From a phage: a stretch of 64,000 nt of DNA. Position 1 is the stretch's first letter; each line of letters opens with the position of its first letter. Both the position numbers and the translations under genes were made by a program. The notes under the pieces were generated by a model. It saw nothing but the letters and a program-made list of their open reading frames with translations. It made no database searches and was not told the DNA's origin. The DNA lies in the sequence record PZ540767.1, one strand, 5' to 3'. This document shows, piece by piece, positions 29,419 through 35,247 of this stretch.

Positions 29419-30123
29419 TTAGTCGAAGTTAGCAAATGGGTCGTCTTCAGTATCTGCTGGTTTAGCAAAGCCAGCCTCACTGGTTTCAACTACTTTGGTT
29501 ACCGGAGTATCTGCCTGAGCAAACAGCTCGTCACCTTCAGATGAAGCCAGCCCAGCGTCTGCGAATGGATCGACTTCTTCTGCTACAGCAGCATCTTTGG
29601 CTTCTGGCAGCAGTTCATTTTCAGCACGCAGGTTTGCACCTTCGTCAATGTCGAATGGGGCAGCATTGTCTGCATCACTGGTTTCAGCAAAGAGATCTTC
29701 TTCACTTTCAGTTTGAGTTTCTGCTTCAGCTTTTACTTCAGCCTGTGCTGCGGCTTCTTCGGCAGCTTTATCAGCTTCGATTTCAGCTTTAGTACGACGT
29801 TTACGACGCTTAGGCTTATCGTCACCAGGTTCGTTACTGGTTTCCTCAGCTGAATCTTCTTCAGCCTCTTCCTCTTCCACTACTGGAGGCTCTGCGAAGA
29901 GTTGTTTAGCAACTTCAGACACAGAACCAGAACTAAGAGGGCCAGTTAAATCAGCAACAGATTTCAGGCGGAAGTTATCTTCGCCTACAGCTACAGCTGC
30001 CACGATCTGACCATCCAGAATACCTACTGTAACATCAGCCCCTTTAGCTGTAGGTACGAGACTGGAAAACGCATGTTTGGTCACCAGTTCGATCAGATCT
30101 TCAGTAGAAAGCAAAATACGCAT
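29419..30123 (-). CDS. acidic hypothetical protein with DDPF-type C-terminal tail
   Basis: 234 aa; AAGGA RBS; E/A-rich, basic KRRKRR patch, ends DDPFANFD. Confidence 0.55.
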   Translation of the reverse strand: MRILLSTEDLIELVTKHAFSSLVPTAKGADVTVGILDGQIVAAVAVGEDNFRLKSVADLTGPLSSGSVSEVAKQLFAEPPVVEEEEAEEDSAEETSNEPGDDKPKRRKRRTKAEIEADKAAEEAAAQAEVKAEAETQTESEEDLFAETSDADNAAPFDIDEGANLRAENELLPEAKDAAVAEEVDPFADAGLASSEGDELFAQADTPVTKVVETSEAGFAKPADTEDDPFANFD

Positions 30124-30975: not shown

Positions 30976-31017
30976 GGTAACCTCAGAATAAGCCCCCTGG
31001 TTTAGGGGGCTAAGTTA

Positions 31018-31758
31018 TTACATGGTAAATGGATCATCACCAGTGGTGGCATTGTCAGATCCTGGGTTGAAACCAGCACCTGCAAAGTTACCACCCGGAG
31101 CACCAGCGTTACCCTGACCAGTCACTTCTTTGAAGCGATCCCATACCTGGCCTTTGTTAGCTTCGAGCCACTTATCTTTGAAAGTAGCGACTTCCTGCTT
31201 ACCACGAATTTCCTGTTCAGTCTTATCGTCTTTACTACGGAAGACTTTTGCAATGGCATTGATCTCACGAGCTTCATTGATCGGCTCATACTGACCATCA
31301 TCGTTGCGTTTCTGCTTGTTCTCTTTAATACGCTGGATAGCGAAGGTGATCGGTTTACCACACAGATCCACCAGCATAGGAACATCAGTCGGAACTTCGG
31401 CTTTCTTCTCGAAGTTATACAGGTTGATGGTTTTGGTTTCTGGTTCCAGTTTAACCAGAGGCTTACCGCAGGCCAGCAGGCAGATCGAGTTTGCTTTCAG
31501 GAAGTTCTTGGTGTACTCGCCTTTATCGTTGACGACTTTACCCTGACCGTTCATGAACCAGATCTGCTCTTTGTAGATGCCGTGATCATCTTCGAATTCG
31601 ATGTTCATGGCTTGAGCTTTGGACTTTTCCGACTTGGTGATGTAAGCCAGTTTGATGATGCCCGGATAGACGTCAGTGTCACGAATGCGCATACCAGTGC
31701 CCAGGGTATCTTTCTCTACTGCTTTTTCTGCATCATAGTTAAAATCAAAATAAGACAT
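31018..31758 (-). CDS. ssb: single-stranded DNA-binding protein
   Basis: 246 aa; C-terminal Gly-rich linker ending in acidic GDDPFTM tail, like bacterial/phage SSB tips; AAGGTAA RBS; N4-like position. Confidence 0.6.
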   Translation of the reverse strand: MSYFDFNYDAEKAVEKDTLGTGMRIRDTDVYPGIIKLAYITKSEKSKAQAMNIEFEDDHGIYKEQIWFMNGQGKVVNDKGEYTKNFLKANSICLLACGKPLVKLEPETKTINLYNFEKKAEVPTDVPMLVDLCGKPITFAIQRIKENKQKRNDDGQYEPINEAREINAIAKVFRSKDDKTEQEIRGKQEVATFKDKWLEANKGQVWDRFKEVTGQGNAGAPGGNFAGAGFNPGSDNATTGDDPFTM

Positions 31759-31759
31759 G

Positions 31760-32290
31760 TTAGTTACCTTTTGTTTCTAGGCCATGGTTCTCATGGAAGC
31801 CTAATTCAATTAATTTCTCAGCCCGGCAGATAGCTGCTTCATTGGCTGTTTTGAAGGTACGTTGCCATACCTTCTTACGGTTCATCGTGATTTCTGCTAC
31901 ATAGCGATCACGACGTTTGCAGTACCAAATACCTTGGTGTCCAGTAATGGTATTGCTGATTGCACCCCTGTTTCGCATATTCTGAAGCATCGTAGTGTCC
32001 TTCAGATTTACTGCCCTGTTGTCATCACGAATATGGTTATCGTGGTCTACGTGCCCTTTAGGCCACTGCCTGTTGTGCATGTAGTAACAGATGATATGCT
32101 CTCCATAGGTAGTGCCGAAGATTGTTATATGGCGGTAGCCGCTAGCCTTGTGGAGACTCCCAGCGCGACTACCGATAACAATTCTCTTATTACAAGACTT
32201 GCTAATCCAAGTAAGATGTCCAGTAAGAGCATCATATTTTAGTACCTTTTCAAGCATTTCAAGGGTGAGATCTTTTTTGGGAATTTTCAT
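31760..32290 (-). CDS. HNH homing endonuclease with AP2-type DNA-binding domain
   Basis: 176 aa; HVDHDNHIRDDNRAVNL HNH motif followed by AP2-like GIWYCKRRDRYVAEI...ANEAAICRAEKL. Confidence 0.7.
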   Translation of the reverse strand: MKIPKKDLTLEMLEKVLKYDALTGHLTWISKSCNKRIVIGSRAGSLHKASGYRHITIFGTTYGEHIICYYMHNRQWPKGHVDHDNHIRDDNRAVNLKDTTMLQNMRNRGAISNTITGHQGIWYCKRRDRYVAEITMNRKKVWQRTFKTANEAAICRAEKLIELGFHENHGLETKGN

Positions 32291-33018
32291 GCGTAATACT
32301 CATGCAAACGGTCTAAGACCAACTGCATGTCATTATCGATGAAGGTTTCCTTGATATCAAATAAGTCCTCTGGGCCACGTAAACGCTCGTTAATGGTGTT
32401 CTTAGTAACCTGGGTCTGGTAAACATGCTTGTACCCGAGCATCTCCTCGCGCTCGTTAATGTGAAGTAACCCGTTCTGGTATTCTTCCAGATCCGTAAGC
32501 TTCACTTTCTTACAGGCAATAACCAGACTGAAGTATGACTCAATGCCCTGGTTCTTCAGTGCCCCTTTAACAGGTACACAGGTTTCACGAACCATGTCAT
32601 CGTTAACTTCATCCTTCGTGTGAGCTAAGAAGATCACGTTCTTGGTAGACGTGGCTACCAGCACCTGCATCAGGTGTTTGAACTGCTGGGCAAATTGGCC
32701 CCATGCAGCTTGGGTATTCGAGCTAGTAAGTACGAGCTGGCTCTCTACCATGTCCATGTAGTACGTCAGTGAATCAACTACAATGGTGTGAATATTCGGC
32801 TGGGTTTCAGCCCACTGAAACGCTTTAGGGAGGATATCCCAACGTGCAATGGTACGTTCCAGGAAACCTGATTTGAACGGCAGCTTTTTACCTGATTCAC
32901 AGTTAAGGTACAGCACACCTTCCGGGTTCTTCAGGTTCTTCAGTGACCGTGATTTACCACTTGCTGATTTACCTACAAGCAGTACAAGGTTGTCATTAAC
33001 GCTGATTTGATCGGACAT
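32287..33018 (-). CDS. P-loop ATPase, probably RecA-like recombination/replication ATPase
   Basis: Walker A GKSASGKS near N-terminus; ATG at 33018 with AGAGGT RBS (ORF track begins earlier at a non-ATG codon). Confidence 0.55.
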   Translation of the reverse strand: MSDQISVNDNLVLLVGKSASGKSRSLKNLKNPEGVLYLNCESGKKLPFKSGFLERTIARWDILPKAFQWAETQPNIHTIVVDSLTYYMDMVESQLVLTSSNTQAAWGQFAQQFKHLMQVLVATSTKNVIFLAHTKDEVNDDMVRETCVPVKGALKNQGIESYFSLVIACKKVKLTDLEEYQNGLLHINEREEMLGYKHVYQTQVTKNTINERLRGPEDLFDIKETFIDNDMQLVLDRLHEYYA

Positions 33019-33087
33019 AATTACCTCTTTTGAAATGCCCCCGAAGGGGCAAACCCACAAAGGGAACGGAAGTTCCCCAACACACAA

Positions 33088-35247
33088 TTACTTAACTTTC
33101 TTGGCAATGGTGAGCATGATGCTGCCATCAATTTCACTCTCGTCCAGCTTACCGGGAAGCTTGTTGTTCAGTTCCTTCACCTGGCTTCTGATACGATCCA
33201 GAGAGAACCCTGCATCTACCAGTACCATGGCATAGTTGAACAGCTGCTTATTACGGTTACCATCACCAGTGTTGTTAAGTACCCAACGTTCCAGATTATC
33301 CAGTTGATGCTGATCAGTAAGCATTTGCTTACGATCCTCGTTCTTACTGGTTTTAGGAATGAAGGGGAGCACATCGAATAGCTGACCATCCGTATACTCA
33401 TAATGCCCTTTATGTGTTAACCATTTCTTAGAACGGTGTGAACACTGGTCATCAGCTTTAAATGGCAAGCCTTCAAGGACGTTGTTATAAAACTCCTTGT
33501 AGTCTTTGGCATCCAGCTTCAGCTCATAGTTAATAGGCAAAATGATACGGAAACGGTTAGTCTCTTCGGTATGTCGTTTAGTGGTGTAATACAAAGCCCT
33601 GTAGTCTTTCAGCAGTAACTTAGCTGTAGACAACTGACAGGTTCCATCCACATCAATAACCAGAAGGTTAAAGCCAGGAATGGCATTCTCTTCATTACGA
33701 TAACCGTTCATCACTTTATGGGTCAGCCAGTGAAGATCAGGCTGATTTACCAGTCTGTGCAGTTGATCGAATGGTACGTCTTTAGGTACGAAACCAGTGG
33801 TTAAATCCTTGCTGTATGACAAGATCATCTCATCAAGGTTAGTTGGTTTCAGAGATTCACCACTCAGGAATAAGATGCCATCAGTGTAGCTTCGCTTCAC
33901 AATGATGTTGTTTTTATAACCATAAGCAATAGCCAGGTTAATCATCTCATCCTTCTGGTTTTTACCACCACGGAAATAAGGCAGATCCTCATCCATGTCA
34001 GCCAAAGTAACGTCTGTGCCTACATCAGCTAAATACTTAGCCAACTTGGCATAGTTACGTTCAGGCGTAAGCAGCTTGGCAAAAGCTTCACCACATTCTT
34101 CAGTAAGCTTAATGGCGTTCTCCAGATGATCCTGAGAAAGCACAGGTGAACCATCTACGAAAGCATAAGCAGCAGCCAACTTCATGCACTTAAAGTAACG
34201 GTTCTCAAGTTCACCCTTTTGGATAGTTTGATACTCGTTTAAGTGTTTGGATTTGGCTTCGCAGTCCAGACGGTACTGCAAGATGTTACGTAGTACTTCG
34301 CGTGGGATAGTGATAGCTTTACGAAGGTTAGAGATATCTGCCAGCTTCTCCAGCTTCTTACCTAGATCGGTAATGAAGGTATCAGCATTGGCATCAAACA
34401 TCTGCTTCATAATGTCATCAGCTGTAATCCCTTCTGGTTTCTTAGCTTTCAGCAGGAAACCAAAGTGACAACGACGTGCATAGCCCATCTCCAGCATGTC
34501 ATACAGACGACGTTCAGTTACATCCCCATCAAACAGCTTGGTTGGAGTACCAAACAACAACATGTTAGTTGGAGTACTACCTACCAGCTTCTCATGGCGA
34601 ACGTTTTCAGCAGACGATTTGATCAGCTTATCTTTTACTAAACCGAGGTCATAGAGTTCCAGGAAAGTATCCAGTACCTCAGTCTGACCTACCAGGTTTG
34701 CACCGATTTCATCAATCTGCAAGTTAACAGCACCTGCATTACCCATAAGCAGTTTATGACGCATCTGCTTAACTGCTGGGGTAGTACCAGAGTCAAAGCT
34801 AAACAGAAGACTGCCTAAGCTTTCAAACTCTTTACGCACCTTCTCCAGCTCATCTTCTGGGTCAACCAGATTAGACGCTGTGGATTTACGTTGAGCACGT
34901 TTCTGAGCAAGCTCAAACATGTTCTGTTCAGCTACTGTAGGGAAAGTTACTTCCAGGAATCGTTCACGGAATCCTGCAAGCAATTCACGTTCGATCAGGC
35001 TGGTGGAATAGCCTTTACCAGTACCTGACGGAGACAGGTTCAGAGCGTAGATATTGATAGGCAGATCGTTACGATCATATCCTTTAATGACTGCTCGCAT
35101 AGACGAGGCCATTACACCCCAGTAGTAAGCCAGAACTACCCTGAAAAAGAGTCGTTCTTCGTTAAGGGTTTTAGCATTGAGAAAATCAACGATCTTCTCA
35201 CTGGTGGGATGATATTTCATCTCACTCACTGGTTTGATGGAGATCAT
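33088..35247 (-). CDS. primase-like replication protein (N4 gp43-like by position)
   Basis: 719 aa; N-terminal P-loop-like SPSGTGKGYS, C-terminal acidic LLVIDVDG motif; AAGGA RBS. Confidence 0.5.
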   Translation of the reverse strand: MISIKPVSEMKYHPTSEKIVDFLNAKTLNEERLFFRVVLAYYWGVMASSMRAVIKGYDRNDLPINIYALNLSPSGTGKGYSTSLIERELLAGFRERFLEVTFPTVAEQNMFELAQKRAQRKSTASNLVDPEDELEKVRKEFESLGSLLFSFDSGTTPAVKQMRHKLLMGNAGAVNLQIDEIGANLVGQTEVLDTFLELYDLGLVKDKLIKSSAENVRHEKLVGSTPTNMLLFGTPTKLFDGDVTERRLYDMLEMGYARRCHFGFLLKAKKPEGITADDIMKQMFDANADTFITDLGKKLEKLADISNLRKAITIPREVLRNILQYRLDCEAKSKHLNEYQTIQKGELENRYFKCMKLAAAYAFVDGSPVLSQDHLENAIKLTEECGEAFAKLLTPERNYAKLAKYLADVGTDVTLADMDEDLPYFRGGKNQKDEMINLAIAYGYKNNIIVKRSYTDGILFLSGESLKPTNLDEMILSYSKDLTTGFVPKDVPFDQLHRLVNQPDLHWLTHKVMNGYRNEENAIPGFNLLVIDVDGTCQLSTAKLLLKDYRALYYTTKRHTEETNRFRIILPINYELKLDAKDYKEFYNNVLEGLPFKADDQCSHRSKKWLTHKGHYEYTDGQLFDVLPFIPKTSKNEDRKQMLTDQHQLDNLERWVLNNTGDGNRNKQLFNYAMVLVDAGFSLDRIRSQVKELNNKLPGKLDESEIDGSIMLTIAKKVK

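Follow-up and report, generated by a model that had tools for sequence, protein, structure and literature searches.

A small gene for a putative HNH endonuclease lies between the genes for SSB and a recombination ATPase in a Klebsiella N4-like phage (sequence record PZ540767.1). An initial annotation described it as a free-standing HNH nuclease gene with an AP2 domain, which interrupts an N4-like run of replication genes and marks recent genome plasticity. The locus raises the question of whether this gene is a newcomer or a long-standing resident, and of what its product might do. The analysis was based on a window of 64,000 nt, which is the whole stretch of DNA considered here. The source phage belongs to Efbeekayvirus, within the Schitoviridae, and shows approximately 97% identity to FBKp27 and P184; the segment 30600-33600 shares 96-97% identity with FBKp27, P184, Tribble_ER49 and others. 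The features of the locus are listed in Table 1.

Table 1. Features of the HNH-AP2 locus, with positions given in the 64,000-nt window.
Feature	Position	Strand	Evidence
Terminator-like hairpin directly after SSB	30993..31008	minus	Consensus scan
N4 gp45-type SSB, downstream neighbour	31018..31758	minus	PHROG 743, E 3.5e-65
HNH-AP2 endonuclease gene, 176 aa	31760..32290	minus	ORF list, ATG start; Pfam, PHROG and I-HmuI profile matches
AP2-like DNA-binding domain, residues 117-162	31805..31942	minus	Sub-threshold Pfam AP2, ortholog PF00847, predicted fold
HNH (beta-beta-alpha-metal) catalytic core, residues 65-106, 'HNN' type	31973..32098	minus	Pfam HNH_3, invariant residues, I-HmuI alignment
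N-terminal region, residues 1-63, helix then beta strands	32102..32290	minus	AlphaFold2 model, fold match, invariant residues
ATGA overlap, HNH start / Sak4 stop	32287..32290	minus	Read from sequence
Sak4-like AAA_24 ssDNA-annealing ATPase, upstream neighbour	32287..33018	minus	Pfam AAA_24 E 1.4e-14; PHROG 124 E 5e-48
DNA primase, N4 gp43 type, phylogenetic marker	33088..35247	minus	PHROG 2135, 1060 bits

The open reading frame and the Pfam and PHROG matches of its product agree with the initial annotation in placing an HNH gene between SSB and the recombination ATPase. Pfam HNH_3 (PF13392) matches residues 65-106 (E 6e-8) with 32.6 bits, above the curated gathering score of 24.8, and PHROG 99, 'HNH endonuclease', covers the full length of the protein (E 3e-49). 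A profile built from eight orthologs matched a single solved structure, that of I-HmuI (1U3E), over residues 45-111 (E 4.6e-7), and the catalytic segment of the gene aligns with 'vDHkDgnkdnNlstNLRwVTqkiNveN' of I-HmuI. The residues H65, D82, H83, N95, N104 and N107 are invariant across 58 aligned orthologs, the most divergent of which have 35% identity. The same 58 sequences exhibit invariant Y19, G24, W28, A43, G44, G51 and Y52 in the N-terminal region.

With the 58-sequence alignment as input, AlphaFold2 returned a model with a mean pLDDT of 83. The N-terminal part, which is probably DNA-binding, comprises a helix (10-16) and four strands (17-20, 25-28, 53-57 and 60-63) with pLDDT values of 89-97. 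The core at residues 80-105 is predicted to be a beta-beta-alpha unit (strands 80-83 and 96-99, helix 101-105), and the catalytic D-H...N...N pattern is present on this predicted beta-beta-alpha-metal fold. A low-confidence linker at residues ~106-120 is followed by a C-terminal part made of strands 121-124, 129-136 and 139-146 and a helix at 149-162 (pLDDT 84-90); the predicted model thus contains an AP2-type fold, namely a three-stranded antiparallel sheet with one packed helix. In a Foldseek search of the PDB, I-HmuI ranked first, with a probability of 1.0 and the whole chain aligned. The next matches were AP2 domains, with probabilities of 0.75-0.97 and weak E-values (WRINKLED1, 7wq5; Plasmodium PF14_0633, 3igm; TEM1, 7et4).

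Of the two domains named in the initial annotation, the HNH domain is confirmed above the curated threshold, whereas the AP2 domain holds by fold and by orthologs and fails the Pfam cut-off. Pfam AP2 (PF00847) matches residues 117-153 with E 4.6e-5 and 24.1 bits, below its gathering score of 33.3. We nevertheless uphold the AP2 call, because PF00847 is precomputed on several orthologs with 51-63% identity to the 176-aa protein, because a sheet and a helix are predicted, and because AP2 structures are the next matches after I-HmuI. 'HNH-AP2' is therefore a fair label, in which the AP2 part is less firmly established than the HNH part. Taken from profile and fold matches, the best-supported description of the gene is that of a modular endonuclease of the I-HmuI type, with a putative DNA-binding N-terminus, a single-metal HNH centre, a flexible linker and an AP2-like C-terminus.

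I-HmuI, from Bacillus phage SPO1 (PDB 1U3E), shares with the HNH-AP2 protein the N-terminal beta-sheet region and an HNH core with the D-H...N...N pattern. The two proteins are of similar length (174 versus 176 aa), with approximately 17% identity over the structural alignment. The I-HmuI gene is carried by a group I intron and its product has a C-terminal helix-turn-helix domain, whereas the HNH-AP2 gene is free-standing and intergenic, and its product ends in an AP2-like sheet and helix. The free-standing HNH-AP2 genes of phages, cyanobacteria and protists likewise combine an N-terminal HNH domain with a C-terminal AP2 domain, and the present gene resembles this family in being a small free-standing gene inserted amid conserved phage genes.

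The HNH-AP2 gene is already known in kind: close relatives carry it as an annotated gene, and its family has been described. GenBank orthologs occupy the same position with 47-99% identity (FBKp27 gp09, YP_010563434; GADU21, UOX39342; Possum gp077; CB1_71; XC38 gp23). The genes of FBKp27 and GADU21 are 99% identical to it and are annotated 'putative HNH endonuclease', and the Cbunavirus orthologs are annotated 'HNH homing endonuclease'. In the paper on CB1, CB3 and CB4, such HNH genes are counted as selfish elements (PMC6027278). The combination of HNH with a C-terminal AP2 domain is described as a homing endonuclease family in PMC10448857, which cites Magnani et al. 2004 on this point. In contrast to the IPA-HNH genes of ICP1 (PMC10448857), which are too divergent for the HNH_3 profile, the gene at 31760..32290 does match HNH_3. 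Proteins of the HK97 gp74 type are likewise small, stably retained phage HNH proteins, and these serve the phage; they adjoin the terminase and the cos site and lack an AP2 domain, whereas the HNH-AP2 gene is located between Sak4 and SSB. A terminase-helper role of the HK97 gp74 type was considered and rejected on account of this position, the neighbours being Sak4, SSB, primase and exonuclease.

The gene order exonuclease, primase, Sak4, [HNH], SSB is that of gp42, gp43, gp44 and gp45 in N4. In N4, gp44 and gp45 are directly adjacent, with a 45-nt gap and no HNH gene, which bears out the claim that the gene interrupts an N4-like replication run. The genes are tightly packed: the HNH stop and the SSB start form a TAA-C-ATG junction with a 1-nt spacer, and Sak4 and HNH overlap or nearly abut in other carriers as well. 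The hairpin that follows SSB is likely the end of a primase-Sak4-HNH-SSB transcription unit; a terminator is annotated at the matching position after SSB in FBKp27 and Halo_KS_7. A dedicated HNH promoter was also considered. There is one sigma-70-like match (32360-32332), which is not evidence of a promoter, since the region contains seven matches and shuffled sequence contains 13.3. Mechanically, the Sak4 ORF runs 23 codons further upstream to a TTG at 33087, abutting the primase stop. Homolog alignments favour an ATG at 33018 as the start, so that ~70 nt (33019-33087) separate Sak4 from the primase. Downstream of RuvC, a minus-strand ORF (29419-30123) encodes a very acidic, low-complexity protein of 234 aa and shows the highest variability in the 9-kb region among close relatives (nucleotide diversity ~0.096).

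The comparison of this junction in related phages revealed the empty-site alleles that the initial annotation had proposed to look for, in nine named phages and 55 IMG/VR loci. Besides the 45 nt of N4, the empty spacer between Sak4 and SSB measures 40 nt in G7C, 26 nt in the LIT1-type DL64, 14 nt in LUZ7, 9 nt in TR2, 13 nt in Fifi011, 52 nt in 98PfluR60PP, 115 nt in Presley and 112 nt in Ab2712; across N4 and most Schitoviridae, the range is 9-170 nt. When IMG/VR was scanned with aligned Sak4 sequences, 80 loci were obtained, comprising 10 carriers, 55 empty junctions, 5 uninformative cases and 10 junctions with other cargo, the families of the latter being judged by sequence motifs only. Given these empty junctions and the unrelated cargo in other lineages, the HNH gene is an insertion relative to most of Schitoviridae, and the Sak4/SSB junction is a general slot for accessory genes.

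Regarding the other cargo, MazG-like ORFs with the motif 'EELGD.EF' fill the junction in six Schitoviridae-like IMG/VR contigs (L127, L146, L147, L154, L158 and L177). In L144 and L166, it holds proteins of 221-254 aa from a second family, and in L116 (3225-3782) a Cys-rich ORF of 185 aa. In the Ab2712 and Presley spacers, blastn-short and tblastx found no HNH remnants above chance. The idea that these 112-115 nt spacers are deletion scars was rejected: other empty sites include spacers of this length, which is not evidence of a scar. At the divergence between carriers and non-carriers, the nucleotide sequences of the junction are saturated. In the spacer of Acinetobacter phage Ab2712 (L096 6982-7093), TACG/TACGTAC repeats follow one another, …GTACGTATGTATG…CGTACGTACGTACTTACGTAC…; this possible regulatory or hairpin element does not resemble the HNH gene.

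A tblastn search with the HNH protein against 50,697 phage records gave best matches, from 99% to 47% identity, exclusively in N4-like phages. These records comprise 13 Klebsiella, two Enterobacter, Escherichia EK8, 14 Pectobacterium, two Kosakonia, Erwinia MIF8 and four Acinetobacter phages, and each of those inspected has the gene between Sak4 and SSB. The next match, in phage T1 (40% identity, E 2e-16), has an unrelated context. All homologs of at least 44% identity with examined context occupy exactly the Sak4/SSB junction, and none of those with 43% identity or less that were placed in context does. Among the IMG/VR loci of at least 44% identity, Sak4 is immediately upstream in 23 of 23, and SSB is downstream in all but one, which is an incomplete contig. 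Among the weaker IMG/VR loci, 56 of 57 have neither Sak4 nor SSB adjacent; the remaining one (L062) is an N4-like contig with the HNH homolog outside the junction. A collection of 5.8 billion proteins yielded ~100 HNH clusters of 43%-99% identity, many of them on contigs of 70-78 kb; of the members sampled, those at 44% and 48% identity are at the Sak4/SSB junction and one at 38% is elsewhere.

The position is also fixed in its dimensions, Sak4 and SSB being separated by 508-550 nt in all carriers. In GenBank, the gene is present in all 13 Efbeekayvirus and all 20 Cbunavirus-like records. A search with the primase found homologs in 470 Schitoviridae-type phage records. Those with 95-98% primase identity carry the HNH gene without exception (13/13), as do those with 67-70% (20/20), giving 33/33 at 67% or above. 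The sole non-carrier in the band of 60-80% primase identity is Ab2712, at 61%. The initial annotation had named universal presence without empty sites, together with a lack of nuclease activity, as evidence against its reading; such presence is found in Efbeekayvirus and its sister genera, and not across the Schitoviridae.

The history of the gene was examined with a neighbour-joining tree built on two proteins, primase and Sak4, with 79 taxa and 100 bootstraps. All carriers fall within one clade with 100% bootstrap support, which includes two non-carriers, Ab2712 and Presley; the ~57 sampled taxa outside this clade are all without the HNH gene. Nodes inside the carrier clade have 56-86% support. 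Scattered carriers had appeared in a first tree of 26 taxa, a picture that was overturned by the 79-taxon sampling in favour of one well-supported clade. Pairwise HNH distances correlate with those of primase and Sak4 (r = 0.92), the tree topologies agree on the same groups, and no conflict of the HNH phylogeny with the host-genome phylogeny was seen. Between Efbeekayvirus and the Cbunavirus-like phages, the mean identity is 58% for HNH, 69% for primase, 69% for Sak4 and 45% for SSB. Between Efbeekayvirus and the Acinetobacter group, the corresponding values are 47%, 54%, 48% and 32%. At every depth, the between-group identity of HNH falls between that of Sak4 or primase and that of SSB. Within the genus, the dN/dS of HNH is 0.10, compared with 0.08 for SSB, 0.08 for RuvC, 0.13 for the Gam-like gene, 0.05 for Sak4 and 0.04 for primase. 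The HNH gene is under purifying selection comparable to that on SSB and RuvC. Free-standing HNH-AP2 genes are usually seen as sporadic, variable insertions. Unlike these, the gene of the Efbeekayvirus clade occupies a single fixed site in several genera and has diverged together with its neighbours.

As the carriers form a single clade with two non-carriers inside it and the gene co-diverges with its neighbours, we favour one gain and two losses. The HNH gene would have entered the short Sak4-SSB spacer once, in the ancestor of the clade comprising Efbeekayvirus, Cbunavirus, Exceevirus and relatives. It would then have been passed on vertically with its neighbours, intact under selection, and probably lost twice, in Ab2712 and in Presley. 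One old gain followed by vertical descent and two losses is the most economical history. Several ancient gains at the same junction are a possible alternative, because support inside the carrier clade is only 56-86%; the insertion is old under either history.

Regarding function, the HNH protein would bind a long asymmetric site through its N-terminal region and the AP2-like domain and, as a monomer, would nick or cut DNA with its single-metal HNH centre. In a mixed infection with an HNH-less relative, it would cut the HNH-less allele near the Sak4/SSB junction. Repair from the carrier genome would then copy the HNH gene together with flanking markers, resulting in homing and marker exclusion. 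We infer nuclease activity, target and present-day homing from sequence, and the literature searched contained no experimental work on this protein or its close relatives. Whether such a homing gene still homes is not decidable by sequence alone (PMC10448857). Judging from all of the above, we are moderately confident in the joint reading of an I-HmuI-type HNH-AP2 homing gene with one old gain, vertical inheritance, maintenance by selection and a putative homing mechanism.

The claim that the gene marks recent plasticity does not stand. According to that reading, the gene is a recent homing insertion into the junction, with current plasticity and ongoing lateral spread. The empty junctions of N4 and most of Schitoviridae would fit, as would the variable cargo of the slot across the family and the additional variable HNH genes found elsewhere in phages of this clade, six in CB1 versus four each in CB3 and CB4 (PMC6027278). 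However, sporadic presence and absence is not seen among close relatives, with no empty allele in the 33 closest GenBank records or in close IMG/VR contigs; the nearest non-carrier, Ab2712, is already distant in its primase, and the carriers form a single clade under selection. The HNH tree agrees with the core genes, and HNH identity declines in step with that of the neighbours, down to 44%. The composition of the gene is ordinary, with a GC content of 43.3% versus 44.7% for the window and no anomaly in GC or GC3, and no paralogs were found within the window. A sliding-window scan among close relatives showed no diversity seam and no local dip centred on HNH. The dS of Sak4 and HNH is below that of primase and SSB, which was considered as a footprint of recent homing or co-conversion and rejected, as sliding-window diversity is equally low elsewhere in the primase. 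Recent insertion is contradicted by the sequence data presented here, and we regard it as very improbable. A similarly low probability is given to the protein being a catalytically inactive DNA-binding protein, in which the HNH fold would be a scaffold and the AP2-like domain would regulate the transcription or replication of the neighbours. Elsewhere, AP2 domains, which bind specific DNA sequences, have been recruited as regulators, and the final motif position is N and not H, which could point in this direction. Nevertheless, 'HNN' is the form found in I-HmuI, the closest solved relative, which is active with this motif, and the invariance of D82, H83, N95 and N104 in the 58 orthologs would be unexpected if catalysis were dispensable.

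Once a homing gene is fixed and its own population offers no empty targets, decay is expected, as in the classic cycle of invasion, decay and loss. The long-term purifying selection on the HNH gene fits a domesticated, phage-beneficial role at least as well as selfish homing. In the main rival reading, the gene is a former homing endonuclease that is retained for its service to the phage and not for selfish spread, which we consider possible but rather unlikely. Such a nuclease might act as a nickase that provides 3' ends or breaks to recombination-dependent replication by Sak4, SSB, exonuclease and RuvC, or it might be a weapon against competing phages or satellites. Fixation in all sampled members of several genera, a dN/dS similar to that of SSB and RuvC, co-divergence with the neighbours, the ATGA overlap with Sak4 and a transcription unit shared with recombination genes are consistent with this role, for which Odn of ICP1 and HK97 gp74 are precedents among phage homing genes (PMC10448857). 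Against an essential role, the same replication and recombination module operates without the HNH gene in N4 and the vast majority of Schitoviridae, and Ab2712 and Presley are viable isolates inside the clade that do without it. In other lineages, the slot holds unrelated cargo, including MazG-like genes, which identifies it as an accessory slot, and close packing, being usual among phage genes, is no proof. That the protein is, in this one clade of Schitoviridae, a site-specific nickase working as part of the Sak4-SSB module or a standing weapon against relatives is unlikely in our judgement. If true, it would explain why the gene has been retained intact at one site, under selection resembling that on core genes, since the genera diverged.

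Further observations concern the surrounding replication block. Between positions 33400 and 34600, the divergence from Halo_KS_7 (L015) is ~1% near 34450 and ~21% near 33700, within the primase; this is a recombination seam between Efbeekayvirus genomes that is unrelated to HNH. In Vibrio phage VCO139 (KC438283.1, 30399-33596), the primase match falls into two pieces over 3.2 kb, beneath which the record places a 'putative HNH homing endonuclease', and HNH genes abut the primase in Vibrio phage 2.130.O and Pseudomonas phage inbricus (MG592668.1 and NC_054970.1). Various HNH genes seem to have landed repeatedly in the N4-type replication block. Two IMG/VR loci, L179 (1-7495) and L183 (1-20495), from clusters P0102 and P0108, contain an N4-type replication block followed by a phage integrase gene. 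The block comprises a 716-aa primase-like gene, AntA, AAA_24/Sak4, an HNH gene at 48% identity and a 233-aa gene in the SSB position. Bacterial genes come directly after the integrase (isochorismatase, NADH-dehydrogenase/antiporter-like subunits), and members of the two clusters are on contigs of 210-375 kb. This gene content suggests an element that has integrated, and is possibly temperate, with a replication module of the N4-like kind. Schitoviridae are regarded as strictly lytic, and such an element, if true, would be unusual for the family.

Two public records also deserve mention. PQ898399.1 (Enterobacter phage SonariX, 248,734 bp) contains an N4-like primase-Sak4-HNH segment at 229173-233018, with match statistics equal to those of the 76-kb Enterobacter phage SABI, which suggests a concatenated or chimeric assembly and not a true jumbo phage. 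In OY979417.1 (Klebsiella phage K17alpha62, 23410-28053), the primase, the HNH gene and their neighbours are labelled 'RIIA/RIIB lysis inhibitor' and 'DNA polymerase I', and the feature table appears to be shifted relative to the sequence.

What the present analysis adds is that the HNH gene, as judged from its distribution and divergence, is an ancient, clade-defining resident of the locus. This corrects its reading as a marker of recent plasticity to that of an old insertion. The gene is a handy synapomorphy of the Efbeekayvirus, Cbunavirus and Exceevirus group of N4-like phages, and it offers a natural case for studying why purifying selection maintains some homing genes long after they have become fixed. 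With regard to the engineering of these Klebsiella phages for therapy, the HNH gene is conserved and may bias the inheritance of markers in mixed infections.
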